A DNA stretch of 64,000 nucleotides from Escherichia phage vB_EcoM_PTE-Eco09 (PQ306574.1); one strand, 5' to 3'. Counted from the stretch's first letter, positions 4,569-52,480 are shown. Notes: generated from the sequence alone by a model not told the origin. Translations and numbers: made by a program.

Positions 4569-5516
4569 ATGACGTATAACCCATTTACAAAAACGACCGC
4601 TACACTTAATGATTTCTTCGATGATCCAGAAGATAAACTGCCGGAAGGTGTGCATTTGATTGATATGTCGCAGCTTATGATTGCTACTATCTCACATACC
4701 TTTAAACCGGAAGATCCTATTAATGAAGGTATGATCCGTCATCTTATCCTTGACACCATGCGTTATAATATGACAAAATTCAAAGAGCAATACCCAATTA
4801 CGGTACTTGCCTTTGATTCAAGCAAAGGTTACTGGCGACGTGATATCGCCCCTTACTATAAACGCAACCGTAAGGAAAAACGAGACGCAGATCCGCGTGA
4901 TTGGGAGATGATCTTTGCTGCGATCAATAAGATCACCGAAGAGTTTAAAGAGAACATGCCTTATCACGTTATTAAGGTTGACAAAGTTGAAGCGGATGAT
5001 ATAATCGCTGTATTAACTAAAAAGTTTTCTGTAGAAGGTCGCCAGGTGCTAATCAACTCCGGCGATGGTGACTACACACAGTTGCACAAATACAAAAATG
5101 TGAAACAGTGGGCACCAGTACAGAAAGCGTGGAAGAAATGCAAATATGGTAGCCCTTACAAAGACCTTATGGTAAAATGTGTTAAGGGTGACGCAAAAGA
5201 CGGTGTAGCTTCTATCAAGTGCCGTAGTGATTTCATTATCTCACGACTGGAAGGAGAACGAGCTAAACCAATTGCAACCAAATGGTTAGAGCAAATTTTC
5301 GATGCCGAAGATCCAAAGTCTTTGATGACAGAGGAAGAAGCACGACGCTTTGACGAAAACCGCGAACTTATTGATTTTGAATTTATTCCTGATAACATCG
5401 AATATGAAATTTTGTTAGCATGGGAAAAATCTAAACCAGCACCACGCGGTAAAATTTATAACTATTTTGTAACAAATGCGTTAGTTAAAATGTTGCAGAA
5501 AATTGGTGAGTTCTAA
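4569..5516 (+). CDS. rnh: RNase H (5'-3' exonuclease / flap endonuclease)
   Basis: 315-aa ORF; strong similarity to recalled T4 RNase H (YWRRD..YYK.NR, MPY..., EADD.IAVL.KKFS.EG, GDGD(Y/F)TQLHKY.NVKQW, IPDNI, PPRGKIY.YFV). Confidence 0.9.
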   Translation: MTYNPFTKTTATLNDFFDDPEDKLPEGVHLIDMSQLMIATISHTFKPEDPINEGMIRHLILDTMRYNMTKFKEQYPITVLAFDSSKGYWRRDIAPYYKRNRKEKRDADPRDWEMIFAAINKITEEFKENMPYHVIKVDKVEADDIIAVLTKKFSVEGRQVLINSGDGDYTQLHKYKNVKQWAPVQKAWKKCKYGSPYKDLMVKCVKGDAKDGVASIKCRSDFIISRLEGERAKPIATKWLEQIFDAEDPKSLMTEEEARRFDENRELIDFEFIPDNIEYEILLAWEKSKPAPRGKIYNYFVTNALVKMLQKIGEF

Positions 5517-5526
5517 GGGTTGACAC

Positions 5527-6126
5527 ATGAAAGAACTTGAATTAAAATACTATGCACACTCACAAATTGGCGTCGAAACCATCTGTGATTTGTGGGTGGC
5601 AATGTATGACGGGTACAATCTCTTAGACCGAGATAACATATTAAAACACGAATTTTATTATGATACCGAAGATCATGCGCTACGTCAAAAAGGAATTTAT
5701 GCACGACTTGACTGTAGAAAATCAGAGATCATGGTCAAAATGGGTGATAATGAATCTGGACTATTCAACCGCGAGGAAATGACATTTTCAAATTGGGATG
5801 AGTTCGTCCATTTTATTGATAGTCTAGGGGTAAACTCCGACTATATCACTGCAATAATGCAAGTAATGACATATCGCAAGTCATTGACTCTAGATATGGG
5901 TTGTGGTATAGTGGAAATGTGCAAAGACACTTTCTATTATGGCAAAGTAGGCGAAGGATTGGGAAACACTGCTCATTATGAACTTGAGTTCGAGTTAAAA
6001 TCAGGTGATGAAAAAGCACTTGACATTATCCGAGAAATGATGCTAGAATATGTTGGTGACGATTTAAGTCCTAGCGAAATTTCAAAAGCTGAACGTGGTT
6101 TTCAATTAATGACGAAAGAGGGTTAA
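5527..6126 (+). CDS. CYTH-like (triphosphate tunnel metalloenzyme) domain protein
   Basis: 199-aa ORF beginning MKELELKYY (ExExK signature) with C-terminal acidic HYELEFELK motif; inserted between rnh and dsbA-like gene relative to T4 order. Confidence 0.45.
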   Translation: MKELELKYYAHSQIGVETICDLWVAMYDGYNLLDRDNILKHEFYYDTEDHALRQKGIYARLDCRKSEIMVKMGDNESGLFNREEMTFSNWDEFVHFIDSLGVNSDYITAIMQVMTYRKSLTLDMGCGIVEMCKDTFYYGKVGEGLGNTAHYELEFELKSGDEKALDIIREMMLEYVGDDLSPSEISKAERGFQLMTKEG

Positions 6127-23940: not shown

Positions 23941-24108
23941 TATGAAAACTATGAATGTAAACATCCACGAAATCCATACCGAAGTATTCACCGAAGAAGA
24001 CCAGTTTGGTGTATGGGTAAATCCTCATTCGATTACTATCGATATTCCTAATGACGATTATGATCCGTTCTCTCTGATTAGCGAGATTAGTTTTAATGAC
24101 TTCTGAAA
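23941..24108 (+). CDS. hypothetical small acidic protein
   Basis: 55-aa ORF with SD; overlaps start of next gene. Confidence 0.25.
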
Positions 24109-24575
24109 TTGATATCTATGCGGGTGGACCTTATCCATCGGGTGAATTGAGTAATTTCAATAAAAGACCATTCCGTCTATTTGGTTGCGATATTAACAGC
24201 ACAGAAGGATTTTTACAGGGGCTAAGATTTAAGAACCCTCAGAGACAAAGAGAAATCTTTTTGATGCACGGTGGCAAAGCAAAAAGAACCGGAAGAACTG
24301 AAAAGATTGAGAATCACCTGTTATATTTTCAGGGTCGCCAGATTCATCGAATGAGTGAGCATTATTACAGACTGGTACATCTGGCATTTGTTACGATGGC
24401 ACGGAATAACCCAGAATTTTGTAAAGCATTACTCGCTACCGGAAATAAGAAATTACGTCATAGTATAGGTGGAACTGATCCGTTAAAGACTATATTGACT
24501 GAATCGGAATTTTGTAGTATCCTCAATGATATTCGTGAACGTTTAACAAAACGAGGTGAAAATGTCAATTCTTAA
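24096..24575 (+). CDS. NADAR-domain protein (YbiA-like)
   Basis: GGPYPSGELSNFNKRPF...STEGFLQGLRF...MHGGKAKRTGR...CKALLATGNKKLRHSIGG resembles NADAR/YbiA signature blocks (SNF, SEHYFQAxKF, LLAT). Confidence 0.6.
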   Translation: MTSEIDIYAGGPYPSGELSNFNKRPFRLFGCDINSTEGFLQGLRFKNPQRQREIFLMHGGKAKRTGRTEKIENHLLYFQGRQIHRMSEHYYRLVHLAFVTMARNNPEFCKALLATGNKKLRHSIGGTDPLKTILTESEFCSILNDIRERLTKRGENVNS

Positions 24576-26058
24576 TATCATTAATCAGCTTGCAGCAACA
24601 GACAAAACATCGCTGAAAGAAAAGATTCTGAAAGAATCAGCAAGCAATGAAACGCTGAAAGAATGCTTTTATCTGGCATATTGCAAACAGGTTACGTTTG
24701 GCGTAAAGAAATACGATAAACCGTCTCGCTATTCGTCTGTATTGTCTTTATCCGGTGCATTACAGGTCTTTAAAAATAAACTTGCCACGCGTCAAGTAAC
24801 TGGTAATGCAGCATTACAACTAGTTACCGATACTCTGACTTGCTTGTCAGAGGATGATGCTAAAGTTGCAATGATGGTCCTGAATCGTGATCTGGAATGC
24901 GGCTGTTCCGCTACCACTGCAAACAAGGTATGGAAGAAACTGATCCCCCAGCAACCGTGCCACCTTGCATCGTCATGTTCTGATAAGACTATTGCTAATA
25001 TCAAGTATCCGGCGTATGCACAACTTAAAAGCGATGGCGCTCGTGGTATGGCTGATATTGACGGGGAAACATTAGCAATCTATACCCGCTCAGGTAATAC
25101 CTATCAAGGGCTTGATGATTTGTTTGCGGTTTTAGAGCGTCTACGAGGCCGTGGAATTGTTCTAGATGGCGAATTGGTATATATGCCTACCCTTTCGCAA
25201 ACACCAGCGCAGAACTTCGTTGAAAGCGTTTATGATGGTACTCTGTCATGGATATTTGAAGAAGAGGAAATGCCATTAACGCCAGTAGCGGAAGCAGTGA
25301 AAGAATCCGTTGTTGCAGATCGTCAGACCGGAAATGGTATCCTCAACAAATCACTTAAAGGAACTATTCCAAAAGAAGAAGCCCAATGTATTGTTTACAC
25401 TGTCTGGGATGTTATCGACCGTGATGTGTATTACGGAAACGAGAAAGCAACGAAGCAATATAAAGATCGATTCGAAGAACTAAAACAGATTGTTGAAGAA
25501 CTTAACGATCCTCGTGTTCAGATCATCGAAAACACTGTAGTTAACAATATCGATGAAGCTCGCGAAGTATATCATCGTTATGTCAACATGGGCTTAGAAG
25601 GTATTATCCTTAAAAATTTACATGGTGTATTTGAAGATCGCCGTAGTAAAGATCAGGTTAAATTTAAAGAAGTGATTGACTTCGACGCGGAAATTGTTGA
25701 TGTATATCCGCATAGTAAAGACCCCAATAAGGTAGGCGGTTTTACTGTCCGTAGTGCGTGCGGACGAATGATGACTAACACCGGATCGGGATTAACCGAC
25801 ACTACAACCGAAAAAGGTGATGATGGTATCGAACGTGTAATTCCGTTCGATCGTCGAAATGAACTCGACCGAGAAATGTTATGGGCTGACCGTCATAACC
25901 TGATTGGAAAAGTCATTGAGATGACATGCAACGGGTATATCCGCAGCAAATCACGTAAAGAAGATGAACCGGAGTTCTCTTTATTTCTCCCAATCATCAA
26001 ACGTATTCGCTACGACAAGACCACTGCAAATACAGTAAAAGAGGTATTCGATGTGTGA
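24562..26058 (+). CDS. 30: ATP-dependent DNA ligase
   Basis: Long matches to recalled T4 ligase (LTGNAA, RDLECG, ANKVW..LIP.QP..LASS, PAYAQLKADGAR, GIVLDGELVY, ASNGI.NKSLKGTI.KEEAQC, IENQVVNN.DEA, GLEGIILKN, RSK..FKEVID.D..IV..YPH.KDP.K.GGF, GSGL, LFLPI..R.R.DKT.ANT). Confidence 0.9.
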   Translation: MSILNIINQLAATDKTSLKEKILKESASNETLKECFYLAYCKQVTFGVKKYDKPSRYSSVLSLSGALQVFKNKLATRQVTGNAALQLVTDTLTCLSEDDAKVAMMVLNRDLECGCSATTANKVWKKLIPQQPCHLASSCSDKTIANIKYPAYAQLKSDGARGMADIDGETLAIYTRSGNTYQGLDDLFAVLERLRGRGIVLDGELVYMPTLSQTPAQNFVESVYDGTLSWIFEEEEMPLTPVAEAVKESVVADRQTGNGILNKSLKGTIPKEEAQCIVYTVWDVIDRDVYYGNEKATKQYKDRFEELKQIVEELNDPRVQIIENTVVNNIDEAREVYHRYVNMGLEGIILKNLHGVFEDRRSKDQVKFKEVIDFDAEIVDVYPHSKDPNKVGGFTVRSACGRMMTNTGSGLTDTTTEKGDDGIERVIPFDRRNELDREMLWADRHNLIGKVIEMTCNGYIRSKSRKEDEPEFSLFLPIIKRIRYDKTTANTVKEVFDV

Positions 26059-49077: not shown

Positions 49078-49088
49078 TGAAATCTATC

Positions 49089-49115
49089 AGCCATCCTTCG
49101 GGGTGGCTTTTTTGT
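49089..49115 (+). terminator. intrinsic terminator after hoc
   Basis: GCCATCC-TTCG-GGGTGGC hairpin (UUCG loop) followed by TTTTTTGTTTTT. Confidence 0.7.
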
Positions 49116-49124
49116 TTTTAGTGC

Positions 49125-49152
49125 TTGACAGAGCGATTTAGATGCCTATAAT
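49125..49152 (+). promoter_or_regulatory. sigma70-like promoter (TTGACA-16-TATAAT)
   Basis: TTGACA 49125-49130, TATAAT 49147-49152. Confidence 0.5.
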
Positions 49153-49279
49153 GGCACGCATCGACATGCTACTGTCCATAGTGAGGCGAATAAAATATTA
49201 TGAATATGGGGGTTGAAATGGCGTTGATAACTGTTACTGTATTATTCGTTGTTGTGTTTATGAATGTATGAGGTGAAGT

Positions 49280-49477
49280 ATGAATGAGATTGTACGATTG
49301 ATCAAAGAAGCACCAATCGAGATGTATTTTCTGGCTTTGGTTGCAACAATGGTCTATCAGCTAGTCGCATGTCATGTGTGGAAGTCGGAAAATGCTTTTA
49401 TCCGGTTTTTTGGTACTGTCATGATCCAGTTTCCGGTACTGATCACTATCCTGTTAATCGTCAATGGGGCGAAGTGA
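49280..49477 (+). CDS. hypothetical small membrane protein
   Basis: 65-aa ORF with two hydrophobic segments. Confidence 0.4.
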   Translation: MNEIVRLIKEAPIEMYFLALVATMVYQLVACHVWKSENAFIRFFGTVMIQFPVLITILLIVNGAK

Positions 49478-49752
49478 TGGACAAGAAAACAGCGTTAATG
49501 GTTTACATGCTACGAGAAGACCACGGTCTTAATTTTGTTGATATTGCTAAAAAGATTGGCGGGATCAGCGGACAAGATGCGGCTAAGGCATGGTTGATGG
49601 TAAAAGATGCACGCGAGGCTTACGCCAGCCGCGAAAAGGTTGTTTATCGTAAACACCATATCAACAAAAAATTTAAAAATAAAGTTCAAAAACGTGTTGA
49701 CAAGCCAAATAACACTGTTATAATGGACGCATTCAAACGGGCAATGTCCTGA
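49477..49752 (+). CDS. hypothetical basic protein
   Basis: 91-aa ORF, ATG overlapping upstream stop (TGATG). Confidence 0.4.
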   Translation: MDKKTALMVYMLREDHGLNFVDIAKKIGGISGQDAAKAWLMVKDAREAYASREKVVYRKHHINKKFKNKVQKRVDKPNNTVIMDAFKRAMS

Positions 49753-49798
49753 TTTGTAATTAATATTCTGAATAACTAATCAATAGAGGTGACTAATT

Positions 49799-50236
49799 AT
49801 GAAATTCCGTAAAAACCACGTAGCAATGAAAAAGGCAATGTTCGAAGCATTCAAAGCAGTTGATCAGGGCGGTGTTACTCTGATTGAGCAAATTAATGTT
49901 GATGTTTGGCAATCTCCGGCGATCACCTGCTCCCGTCTTGCTACGGCTGGCCTTCTGAAAGTTCACAGCTCTACCGCATACGACGAAGCATTGCAAGTCA
50001 TTAAGGCTTTTGCGGGAGACGTTACCAGCAAGTGGGTCTATGTGAATAAAGGTGAAATTGCGGTTGCTCACGTAGGCAACAATATTCAGATGGAAATCAA
50101 GATTAAGGAAGGGTCTAAACGCAATCAGATGCTTGTTCGATTCCAACCATACAAAACTAACGTAGTGCCGGATGATCTGATCATCTCTAAGAGTAATGTT
50201 ACCATTCGCCGAAATCAGATCGTTATCAACAAATAA
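49799..50236 (+). CDS. hypothetical protein
   Basis: 145-aa ORF with SD GAGGTG; followed by terminator. Confidence 0.45.
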   Translation: MKFRKNHVAMKKAMFEAFKAVDQGGVTLIEQINVDVWQSPAITCSRLATAGLLKVHSSTAYDEALQVIKAFAGDVTSKWVYVNKGEIAVAHVGNNIQMEIKIKEGSKRNQMLVRFQPYKTNVVPDDLIISKSNVTIRRNQIVINK

Positions 50237-50244
50237 TTAACATT

Positions 50245-50271
50245 AGCCGTCCTTCGGGGCGGCTTTTTTGT
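50245..50271 (+). terminator. intrinsic terminator
   Basis: AGCCGTCC-TTCG-GGGCGGCT hairpin followed by TTTTTTG. Confidence 0.7.
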
Positions 50272-50322
50272 ATATGTTATTAACATAATTTTAGTTTACA
50301 TGTGCACAATATTAATACTGTT

Positions 50323-50497
50323 TGATTAAATTATGATCAAAACGAAGAAAGATCTTTAGAACATAGAAAATGTATCTTTGGTTAATTATTAATCACTACA
50401 TATTGTAACACAAATGTTATACTCCGTAGGAGTTCGCGAAGCGATATCCTTTTGTGTAGTTTTTACATGTATGATTAAATTATGATCAAAACGAAGA
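50323..50497 (+). repeat. pair of 26-bp direct repeats in a 380-bp non-coding region
   Basis: TGATTAAATTATGATCAAAACGAAGA at 50323-50348 and 50472-50497, each preceded by TTTACATGT and containing TGAT/ATCA dyad elements. Confidence 0.7.
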
Positions 50498-50650
50498 CTT
50501 ATCTTATAGAATAATAAAAATTTGTTTCGAACATTTATTAATCAATTACTGGAAGTGTTTTTAATGCTCGCTGTGCTCGCTTCCGCTACGCGGATACTTG
50601 TATTTGTTATTAACTTGTAGTATGATATTGCTTTCTATGGAGGAAATATT

Positions 50651-51238
50651 ATGTTTGACCAGTTACAAGATCTATTTGGAGTAAAACCACTTCGTAGATG
50701 TGCTTTAATCGGCTCTAGAAAAGCGCCTAGCGACATTTTGATAATGGCTAGTACCATTGGGAGGGTATTGTCAGAAAATCGCGTTGTAGCGCATTCTGGA
50801 GGGGCTTACGGTATGGACAATGCTTTCATGAAGTATTACGATCCAGAGTATAGAAAAATTTTCATTCCAAATTGGAAGTTTTATGACCACAAGCATAACG
50901 GTCATGATGTGATTGCATGGCAAACCTTAGAACAAAAAAATCTGGCGATGGATGAATTAGAACACGTTTATGATAATCCTCGTTCTATACCGTTATACAT
51001 GCAAAATCTGTTTTCTAGAAATGTTGCTCAAGTCTTAGGTGAGACACTTGATGATCCTGTAGATTGTGTGATATTCTGGGCGAAAGAAGTTAATGGAATC
51101 GTTTCTGGAGGAACTAGAATTGCTGTTTATGTTGCCCGTAGACATGGGATACCATGTTTTAACTTATATCATCAAGAAAATAGATCCGCCGTCGAAAAAA
51201 TCTTGGGCGGATCTGACTTGTCTTGGTTAGATATTTAG
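50651..51238 (+). CDS. DprA/Smf-like Rossmann-fold (SLOG superfamily) protein
   Basis: ALIGSRKAP, VAHSGGAYGMDNA, LFSRNVAQVLG and IVSGGTRIAVYVARRHGIPCF blocks parallel DprA signature (GSR ... SGxAxGxD ... FxxRN ... SGxxxTAxxA ... G). Confidence 0.5.
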   Translation: MFDQLQDLFGVKPLRRCALIGSRKAPSDILIMASTIGRVLSENRVVAHSGGAYGMDNAFMKYYDPEYRKIFIPNWKFYDHKHNGHDVIAWQTLEQKNLAMDELEHVYDNPRSIPLYMQNLFSRNVAQVLGETLDDPVDCVIFWAKEVNGIVSGGTRIAVYVARRHGIPCFNLYHQENRSAVEKILGGSDLSWLDI

Positions 51239-52480
51239 TTAAGCGTTGTCAATCTCAAGCGGTGGCAGTTCGATTCCTAAAATGTAGGACATTTCTGAAC
51301 GTCCAGCCATTTTACCCCAATCGTCACCCTTGATGACCTGGTGTTCTTCCTGATCAACTTTTGATGTATATGGGTTGACAGAGAGTGAATAACGATTCAT
51401 AATAGCTACATGATGCTGGAAGCTATTAGGGTCAATTACACTCTTATACGCGCCAGCGCCGTCGGCTTCTGTATATGGGGAGTAGAACAGAGAACCTACA
51501 CTCTCCATATCACCGATCATGTGCTTACAACCAACGAGCATATAATCGAAAGGTGTTGTCGTGTCTGCGTACACTTCCAGACCGCAACGTAGACGACCTT
51601 CGCTTAGAGCATTGTCGGTTTCTTCCATCCAACCGGAAGATTGCAGGAGGCCAACCACGCGAGAAGACGCCAAAACGTATGTACCAGCAAAGGAGGAAGT
51701 CCGCAACATTTGATTGCTCATTTCGCAAGCATAGCGGTAAAGTTCACGCGCTTGTGTTGGTGCATCCTGAACGCTAACGAGAGAAAGTACGCCATCAGGG
51801 GTGATCCCTTTAATTTTATAGCGAGATGATACAGTGATCAACTTCTGAATAATATCTTTGTTGATCTCTTCGGAAGCAACAGTAGCCAGAAGATCAATTA
51901 CAGAGTTTTCAGAGTTGATTTGGCTTGCCTCAAGATCCTGCATCAATTCGGTCGTGAATGAGGTTTTCAGTTTACGAGAACCTACATTAACTTGCCACTT
52001 GTCAAACTGCATAGAGGTAGACGCAATTTCGGTGTTTTTATCTTCAAAGTATTCTACCGATGCACAATCGCTATAGAAACGAATTTTGTTTGTCATTACG
52101 CCTTTAAAGATCGCAGCTTCTGGAGTTGCGGCATCTTCACCGACTGTACCAGCGGTCACAACTTCGTATACAACATCGCCTGATTTGAATAGTGCGCCTT
52201 CGTCATAAGATTTTTCTTTTGAAAACTCTTCAATCTCTGTGCGATCACCAACCGCGCCACCGTAGGTTGCAGCAGTTCGGAAAGTCATCTGACCATCATG
52301 ATTAAGATAACGTAGGCCGTACAATGCAGATACTGGTTGATCCGTTGGCTGGATTGCTACCAGATCAGAGAAAATCAGGTTGTTTACCGCGCGAGTTAAT
52401 GATAATAGTTGCGGTCGCGCTGTCTGGTTAGCTACTGAGGAAGTAGATTCCCGCAACAGTTCAGTAAAAATATGAGTCAT
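51239..52480 (-). CDS. 24: head vertex protein gp24
   Basis: Matches recalled T4 gp24 (ELLRESTS...RP.L..LTRA...LI.SD.VA.Q.T.QPV.A.YG..YLN, KWQ..V.SRKLKT..T.EL.QDLEA, DLLAT....EINKDI.Q.LITVS.RYK..GIT, LYR..CEM, SIFY.PYTE, NPYT, DKMAGRS); ATG taken at MTHIF (52480). Confidence 0.85.
   Translation of the reverse strand: MTHIFTELLRESTSSVANQTARPQLLSLTRAVNNLIFSDLVAIQPTDQPVSALYGLRYLNHDGQMTFRTAATYGGAVGDRTEIEEFSKEKSYDEGALFKSGDVVYEVVTAGTVGEDAATPEAAIFKGVMTNKIRFYSDCASVEYFEDKNTEIASTSMQFDKWQVNVGSRKLKTSFTTELMQDLEASQINSENSVIDLLATVASEEINKDIIQKLITVSSRYKIKGITPDGVLSLVSVQDAPTQARELYRYACEMSNQMLRTSSFAGTYVLASSRVVGLLQSSGWMEETDNALSEGRLRCGLEVYADTTTPFDYMLVGCKHMIGDMESVGSLFYSPYTEADGAGAYKSVIDPNSFQHHVAIMNRYSLSVNPYTSKVDQEEHQVIKGDDWGKMAGRSEMSYILGIELPPLEIDNA

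Follow-up and report, generated by a model that had tools for sequence, protein, structure and literature searches.

Background

DprA is a bacterial DNA-uptake protein. In the structure of Helicobacter pylori DprA (HpDprA) with single-stranded DNA (ssDNA), reported by Wang et al., a single thymine enters a small conserved pocket that R52, Y108, R143, N144 and G164 line; the authors proposed two motifs, G-S/T/A-R and F/L/Y-x-x-R-N/D, for ssDNA-binding DprA domains, contrasted these with the LOG-type signature P-G-G-x-G-T-x-x-E, and noted that the accessory domains of DprA (SAM and winged helix) are not universal (PMC3950713). The host-encoded DprA-like antitoxin ShosA binds ssDNA and RecA and neutralises its toxin without binding it (PMC12961424). 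Phage NADARs, the T4 gp30.3 homolog included, strip ADP-ribose from DNA and counter DarTG1, and for these proteins an orphan-antitoxin strategy has been proven (PMC11825919). Nicotinamide adenine dinucleotide (NAD) is rebuilt from ADP-ribose (ADPR) by NARP1. RyDEP, an unrelated accessory protein in a NARP1 locus, converts cyclic ADPR signals to ADPR for the NARP1 pathway (PMC13232231). In their 2022 survey of viral NAD/ADP-ribose systems Iyer et al. noted SLOG-NADAR, SLOG-Macro and SLOG-DUF4326 fusions and predicted from context that the SLOGs of viruses would sense or break down signals derived from ADP-ribose (PMC9503650). Here we compare with these systems a gene of Escherichia phage vB_EcoM_PTE-Eco09 (PQ306574.1), namely the open reading frame (ORF) at 50651-51238 (+) of the 64,000-nt stretch of DNA that was analysed (the window), which encodes a stand-alone SLOG (DprA-like) domain protein of 195 amino acids (aa) belonging to PHROG 768.

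Our reading, to which we give a probability of roughly 45%, is that this protein has a DprA-type pocket for one nucleotide moiety and serves in counter-defence within the NAD/ADP-ribose network, and not in the loading of a recombinase. The DprA-like annotation of the ORF is already public (the RefSeq name of JSE YP_002922241.1 is 'DprA-like DNA recombination-mediator protein', and PHROG 768 is labelled likewise).

A phage SLOG family closest to the DNA-binding domain of DprA

The ORF runs from ATG to TAG and is preceded by a Shine-Dalgarno sequence GGAGG (50639-50643, +; read from sequence) located 7 nt 5' of the ATG; its 3' end abuts the convergent gene 24 base-to-base. An earlier note, made from the sequence alone, had described a DprA/Smf-like SLOG protein in the slot between hoc and gene 24, and this description stands: the plus-strand frame with its ribosome-binding site is real, and the position is correctly named because it is the one annotated in the RefSeq entry of phage JSE (uvsW, inh, a small ORF, hoc, three small ORFs of which one is a 24.3 homolog, the SLOG ORF, and then gene 24 and gene 23 on the opposite strand). 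The PHROG 768 profile matches the protein with E=1.3e-60 and 205 bits, residues 15-187 being aligned to positions 4-181 of the 191 in the profile. The phage proteins in this family (JSE YP_002922241.1, PaoP5_014, JSF12 gp142) correspond to it over the full length, in size, in motifs and in stand-alone architecture; we found no material difference between them, the family name being a homology label only. The profile searches led to PHROG 768 and DprA, and not to an unrelated family.

The AlphaFold2 model of the protein, obtained with seven homologs (predicted local distance difference test 85, predicted template modelling score 0.85), has a single domain with a Rossmann-like three-layer fold whose nearest structural neighbours are SLOG members, and the SLOG fold is beyond reasonable doubt. 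A Foldseek search against the PDB ranked H. pylori DprA on top (E about 1e-5), followed by the antitoxin ShosA, MoCo-carrier proteins and LOG enzymes. By structure alone DprA is barely preferred; sequence comparison breaks the tie. When 122 diverse family members were scanned with Pfam, the DprA model matched 86 (best E-value 8e-7) and 'SLOG cluster 4' matched 16; the YpsA and YspA/YAcAr (PF06908, PF10686) and LOG (PF03641) models matched 0 of the 122. With the family profile, the sequences of three different DprA crystal structures were recovered at E-values between 1.5e-5 and 1e-2, as against 0.14 for a LOG and 0.53 for a MoCo-carrier. A search of predicted viral structures (BFVD) returned about 19 uncharacterised phage proteins that match closely (template modelling score, TM, 0.6-0.78) and the viral 'YspA/DUF2493' SLOG proteins as a lower structural tier (TM about 0.42). 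Because of these Pfam matches, profile matches and structural tiers we take PHROG 768, as far as sequence comparison can define it, to be a distinct phage-centred clade whose nearest cellular relative is the DNA-binding domain of DprA/Smf. The viral SLOGs of Iyer et al. share with it the stand-alone occurrence in large phages, the fusions to NADAR and DUF4326 and the sporadic fusions to nucleic-acid enzymes, but most of those were placed in a 'YpsA-like clade' (PMC9503650), whereas PHROG 768 matches the DprA and not the YpsA/YspA models.

The protein differs from bacterial DprA/Smf (PF02481; structures 4LJK/4LJR, 3MAJ and 3UQZ) in several respects. The protein itself stays below the curated cut-offs, with 22.3 bits against 29.6 for PF02481 (residues 15-60 only) and 14.4 bits against 191 for TIGR00732, and the similarity is confined to the first 50-70 residues. 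A longer alignment was sought with hhalign, with Smf alone and with an enterobacterial DprA profile (a shallow one, its homologs all being at least 71% identical), and was not obtained (48-63 columns only, 33-58% probability). The middle part of 40 residues (74-115) is different, GGT takes the place of SGS, and SAM and winged-helix domains are both lacking; the E. coli DprA homologs additionally carry PF17782 and PF25317. The C-terminus is short: about 23 residues, forming one helix, follow the last strand, and since the HpDprA dimer contacts P183, L196 and F205 lie in a longer C-terminal segment, the segment for these contacts is largely missing. The dimer surface of DprA also serves RecA binding.

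The four sequence blocks on which the earlier note had relied, G21-S-R23, S49-G-G-A-Y-G-M-D56, F121-S-R-N124 and S152-G-G-T-R-I-A-V-Y-V-A-R-R-H-G166, were all recovered. In an alignment of 140 diverse representatives (26-59% identical to the protein) they form the most conserved positions of the family, and hence do not occur by chance. The residues that are 81-100% conserved are G21, S22, R23, P26, S49, G50, A52, G54, D56, F59, L120, R123, N124, Q127, G130, G153, G154, T155, A158, A162, I167, P168 and N171. DprA motif 1 (G-S/T/A-R; compare HpDprA G50-R52), which contains the switch Arg of the ssDNA pocket, is encoded by the codons of G21-S22-R23 (50711-50719, +), which are 99, 89 and 98% conserved, and GSR is aligned with the GSR of HpDprA and Smf in both the HMMER and the hhalign alignments. 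The Gly-rich loop after strand 2 (S49-GGAYGM-D56, 50795-50818, +) corresponds to SGxAxGxD of DprA. DprA motif 2 (F/L/Y-x-x-R-N/D; compare HpDprA F140-N144) is found as L120-F-S-R123-N124 (51008-51022, +) in helix 115-129 of the model; L120, R123 and N124 are 81, 99 and 96% conserved, and order and spacing are those of Smf F208-R211-N212, the equivalence being one of collinearity. The second Gly loop (G153-G-T-R-I-A158-V-Y-V-A162, 51107-51136, +) has G153-G154 where DprA has S-G-S. Both loops (S49-G50-x-A52-x-G54-x-D56 and G153-G154-T155) are 96-100% conserved and collinear with E. coli Smf, in which the spacing is GSR, 28 residues, SGxAxGxD, 62, FxxRN, 20, SGS, as compared to GSR, 28 residues, SGGAxGxD, 67, LxxRN, 30, GGT in the phage protein.

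Fusions and genomic neighbourhoods of the relatives

We ran 10 of the 13 representatives longer than 250 aa among the top 150 against Pfam. Five of these are NADAR-SLOG fusions (P0047, P0123, P0154 and the giant P0017 and P0019), one is a DUF4326-SLOG fusion (P0137) and one contains a complete RecJ exonuclease with the SLOG domain C-terminal; in the other three no further Pfam domain was found. The two giants, which are metagenomic (P0017, 1475 aa; P0019, 1488 aa), carry, besides this SLOG domain, two others (one YspA-type, one of cluster 4) and a NADAR domain at the C-terminus, a composition that suggests multi-tool ADP-ribose-processing polyproteins.

The neighbourhoods include a NADAR gene 0.5 kb downstream of the SLOG gene (L009), a Prs-like and NAPRTase-family pair (NARP1-type) just upstream in both Pseudomonas phage PaoP5 and the unrelated T4-like metagenomic contig L007, a Nampt gene 1.3 kb downstream in Klebsiella phage Lychee, a SIR2 gene at 4 kb (W22), DUF4326 together with an RNA-ligase/kinase/phosphoesterase set (L012), and pieces of an NAD-dependent DNA ligase on both sides in Vibrio phage JSF12. 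Anti-defence genes also occur: a Gad2-family gene overlaps the start of the SLOG gene in L010, and an Acb2/Tad1-like gene lies at 1.2 kb in L005. Genes for uvsX, uvsY, recA or SSB were found beside the SLOG gene in none of the neighbourhoods examined. Phage PTE-Eco09 itself has a gp30.3/AdfN-type NADAR gene (24096-24575, +; Pfam Phage_30_3, 129.6 bits against a cut-off of 36), directly upstream of the DNA ligase gene (24556-26058) with a 20-nt overlap, and its product is a possible, non-adjacent functional partner of the SLOG protein.

Within the Straboviridae the slot from inh to gene 24 holds the SLOG gene in Krischvirus, Marfavirus, Cinqassovirus and Klebsiella phage Roth68. The gene rnlB, encoding RNA ligase 2, is located directly upstream of it in Roth68 and Marfavirus and about 3 kb upstream in Cinqassovirus, and is absent from this slot in Krischvirus. 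In Roth68 (L013, 2991-4546) the rnlB stop overlaps the SLOG start, in Klebsiella phage R3_1 (L002, 3012-4555) the two are separated by 53 nt, and in Lychee (L014, 2446-4564) an HNH endonuclease gene is inserted before the SLOG gene; rnlB is upstream and in the same orientation in all three. No capsid gene was found within 4 kb of the SLOG gene of Lychee. At a larger distance (3-6 kb) rnlB occurs in Ah1 (L018), L007 and L012, the latter also with a kinase and a metallophosphatase. In T4 the position beside gene 24 is filled by rnlB (gene 24.1), and the SLOG gene is absent from that region.

Proposed function and its alternatives

We propose that the DprA-type pocket of the protein would hold a single nucleotide moiety, comparable to the flipped-out ssDNA base in HpDprA; the candidate ligands are an ssDNA base (including that of ADP-ribosylated ssDNA) or a soluble nucleotide derived from ADP-ribose. 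The protein would then be an accessory counter-defence factor in the NAD/ADP-ribose network of the phage, and might either help or bring in enzymes that remove ADP-ribose, the phage's own NADAR (AdfN, gp30.3) being an example, or else bind or transform ADP-ribose-type products from which NAD is reconstituted. A SLOG domain that brings a DNA-directed glycohydrolase to ssDNA would be expected to occur in NADAR fusions, and one that handles a soluble ADPR derivative would be expected next to NARP1; the data do not separate these two possibilities. A link of PHROG 768 to ADP-ribose-based conflict is probable and has been predicted in print by Iyer et al., on the same contextual grounds (fusions and neighbours) as used here (PMC9503650). 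The wider proposal that PHROG 768 represents a new class of counter-defence factors, which reuses the single-base pocket of DprA for ADP-ribosylated or exposed ssDNA or for an ADP-ribose-derived nucleotide and so aids the removal of DarT-type marks or NAD reconstitution, is more speculative and, taken in full, rather unlikely; its members would work alone or fused to NADAR or DUF4326. We also considered whether the SLOG gene could be the T-even factor that potentiates AdfN (PMC11825919), which is unlikely, as the equivalent slot of T4, the only region searched, has no SLOG gene.

Several observations weigh against the counter-defence proposal. An NAD/ADP-ribose gene was present within 6 kb in only about 7 of the 17 sampled neighbourhoods, and since accessory genes are grouped together in large phages in any case, adjacency counts as suggestive and not as statistical evidence. 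In PTE-Eco09 the SLOG gene has no such neighbour, being flanked by the small ORFs on the hoc side and by gene 24, with the NADAR gene 26 kb off. The most consistent neighbour within the Straboviridae is RNA ligase 2 and not an ADP-ribose enzyme. The RecJ fusion and the DprA motifs are equally compatible with plain ssDNA binding, and the detectable sequence similarity to DprA covers only the N-terminal stretch described above. With an isoelectric point (pI) of 6.4 the protein is slightly acidic; the family median is 8.4 with a wide spread, and therefore the family has no common DNA-binding charge signature. Finally, our search of the literature on phage DprA-like and SLOG proteins found annotation mentions only and no experimental work.

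A role as an extra recombination mediator, as put forward in the earlier note, would have a minimal DprA bind ssDNA and load the phage UvsX or the host RecA, supplementing UvsY. DprA is indeed the best match in sequence as well as in structure, the two motifs of the ssDNA pocket are conserved, a RecJ ssDNA exonuclease is joined to the SLOG domain in one relative, and the Rossmann domain of H. pylori DprA suffices by itself for ssDNA binding (PMC3950713). Against this role, the scores remain under the PF02481 and TIGR00732 cut-offs, the SAM and winged-helix domains are absent, the short C-terminus falls where the HpDprA dimer contacts lie, recombination genes are missing from every neighbourhood examined, and the fusions are chiefly to ADP-ribose enzymes. 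The mediator role is thus unsupported, and we give the loading of UvsX or RecA only a slim chance, less than that of the counter-defence role. The other possibility raised in that note, a nucleotide-binding SLOG protein with a different role, agrees better with the fusions to NADAR, DUF4326 and RecJ and with the NAD-salvage, RNA-ligase and anti-defence neighbours. Among such roles, that of an RNA-repair accessory to RNA ligase 2, which would hold broken RNA or tRNA ends or handle a nucleotide by-product, is suggested by the upstream, co-oriented rnlB of Roth68, R3_1 and (with the HNH insertion) Lychee, by the more distant rnlB of Ah1, L007 and L012, and by the occupation of the same slot in T4 by rnlB. 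The Straboviridae cases may however represent one inherited gene order and not independent associations. A tblastn search with three Rnl2 proteins gave no significant match in the 64-kb window, where the SLOG gene is kept nonetheless, and T4 keeps rnlB with no SLOG gene in the slot; since the window and the T4 slot each contain one of the two alone, neither gene needs the other nearby. We consider this role improbable.

Two further explanations start from other members of the fold. A LOG-like enzyme would hydrolyse the N-glycosidic bond of a nucleotide (AMP-type or cyclic ADP-ribose signals) and so destroy immune messengers of the host, an activity that Iyer et al. have proposed for viral SLOGs (PMC9503650). 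The protein reads V-S-G-G-T-R-I-A where the signature requires PGGxGTxxE, so that the LOG catalytic motif is lacking and Ala158 (95% conserved) stands at the position of the catalytic Glu; the LOG Pfam model matched no family member, the profile matches to LOG, MoCo-carrier and ThsA-SLOG proteins amount to E=0.1-0.5 only, and the sole acidic catalytic candidate identified, Asp56, is also present in DprA. Small odds are all that we would give to such an enzyme. The protein could also be a phage copy of the DprA-like antitoxins ShosA/PsyrA that keeps host toxins of the phosphoribosyltransferase type silent during infection. PsyrA (E=4e-5) and ShosA (E=3.5e-4) were its only PADLOC matches, both partial (residues 15-61), and the crystal structure of ShosA is among the top structural matches; a DprA-type Rossmann domain employed in phage-host conflict is common to all of them. 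ShosA silences its toxin by way of ssDNA and RecA, without toxin contact (PMC12961424), and the phage NADARs provide a precedent for an orphan antitoxin (PMC11825919). On the other hand, ShosA and PsyrA are host-encoded, paired with a toxin and equipped with a SAM domain (ShosA also with an extra C-terminal helix), whereas the phage protein has no SAM domain and its gene no toxin-like neighbour, and its likeness to them is no greater than its likeness to ordinary DprA; we regard the antitoxin role as very unlikely.

Distribution, annotation and significance of the family

A megablast search with 49200-51400 matched 58 phage genomes over the full length at 92-99% identity, all of them RB49/JSE-type coliphages of the genus Krischvirus, to which the window itself belongs, and the SLOG ORF is kept in 58 of 58 sequenced Krischvirus genomes; the protein is 99.5% identical to JSE YP_002922241.1 and 100% identical to the copy of phage kaaroe. 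Of the 50,697 phage records searched by tblastn, 1,419 (~3%) have a homolog, and these are mostly from large virulent phages that infect Klebsiella, Pseudomonas, Escherichia, Vibrio, Aeromonas and Acinetobacter. An exhaustive profile search with a threshold of E<=1e-3 gave 4,319 clusters, and 2,729 of these reached E<=1e-10. The depositors' labels vary ('DprA-like', 'YspA SLOG family protein', 'LOG family protein'). In phage Skers (MW748999.1) the gene at 25264-25848 (corresponding to 50651-51235 of the window) is labelled 'putative RNA ligase', though the ORF has no RNA-ligase domain; the label was probably transferred by position from T4 rnlB (gene 24.1), which fills the same slot. The PHROG 768 family goes unmentioned in the recent literature on NARP3 and in that on the phosphatases with which phages counter RES defence.

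The SLOG gene itself is ordinary and the interest lies in the function of a family found in 1,419 of 50,697 phage genomes and in more than 4,000 clusters. The label 'recombination-mediator protein', which has been widely propagated, probably misleads, because the pocket has been kept and the partner-binding parts have not, and because the family is accompanied by enzymes of ADP-ribose and NAD metabolism that are by now established as phage counter-defences (AdfN/NADAR, NARP1). If the counter-defence role is true, a function would be assigned to a gene of about 3% of the sequenced phages. With a tested function, thousands of phage genomes would be better annotated, and a new anti-defence mechanism might come to light.

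The upstream spacer and neighbouring features

The ORF at 49799-50236 and the SLOG gene are separated by an AT-rich spacer (50237-50650, +; GC 0.30) that is 95-100% conserved in the 58 Krischvirus genomes. The earlier note had called it a repeat-rich non-coding region of 380 bp; the repeats are real and the length is 414 nt. A direct repeat of 38 nt (50319-50356, +), with the 26-nt exact core TGATTAAATTATGATCAAAACGAAGA at 50323, recurs 149 nt downstream (50468-50505, +; core at 50472), the 26-mers being part of two diverged blocks of roughly 78-150 nt that are offset by 149 nt. A 17-mer, TTGTATWTGTTATTAAC, is found at 50268-50284 (+) and again, as TTGTATTTGTTATTAAC, at 50598-50614 (+). For the 26-mer as well as the 17-mer, two matches were reached in 0 of 100 shuffles, which is beyond chance. 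The 26-mer contains the near-palindrome TGAT...ATCA and might, judging by this symmetry, be a protein-binding site.

The first 17-mer copy comes just after the strong hairpin (50245-50264) of an intrinsic-terminator-like element with a T-run (50245-50270, +), which ends the upstream transcription unit; the second is preceded by a small hairpin (50582-50594, +) and is contained in a weak sigma-70-like promoter candidate (50598-50626, +; TTGTAT-17-TATGAT, 8/12). No sigma-70 promoter of at least 9/12 was found on the plus strand of 50237-50650, the best being this 8/12, and no T4-type late or MotA-dependent promoter was found before the SLOG gene. The spacer contains no ORF of more than 32 aa; it gave no credible Rfam match (the two best scored 24 and 22 bits, where the gathering scores are 95 and 80), and its RNA folding is unremarkable on both strands (z-scores -1.2 to -2.3). 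Further explanations of the spacer were rejected as well. It is not a PeSL cassette, which in RB49-type phages consists of a consensus sigma-70 promoter and a stem-loop (Arbiol et al., PMC2839356): the stem-loops are present (50245-50264 and 50582-50594) and the consensus promoter is absent. Neither the spacer nor the upstream ORF of 145 aa appears to be a remnant of rnlB, as the tblastn search with the three Rnl2 proteins found nothing significant in the window. Nor do its repeats belong to a genome-wide dispersed repeat, since within the window the terminator hairpin alone has a further copy, which is 90% identical and lies after hoc (49086-49115).

Two of the ORFs between hoc and the SLOG gene (49799-50236, + and 49280-49477, +) had matches to PHROGs of unknown function only (15652 and 16558) and none in Pfam; a DUF2774/gp24.3 homolog is encoded at 49477-49752. 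In Klebsiella phage R3_1 (L002) a 'hypothetical protein' encoded between the SLOG gene and gene 24 (4577-5779, -) shares 43% identity with the gp24 of the PTE-Eco09 window and represents a second gp24 paralog. A perfect 12/12 sigma-70 promoter (TTGACA-16-TATAAT) comes less than 20 nt after the terminator hairpin behind hoc, the two forming a PeSL-like unit (49089-49152, +), and a second perfect 12/12 sigma-70 promoter with an extended -10 TG (49697-49724, +) lies inside the 24.3-homolog ORF; these promoter and hairpin units (49086-49152 and 49697-49724) fit the published PeSL cassettes of RB49-type phages.

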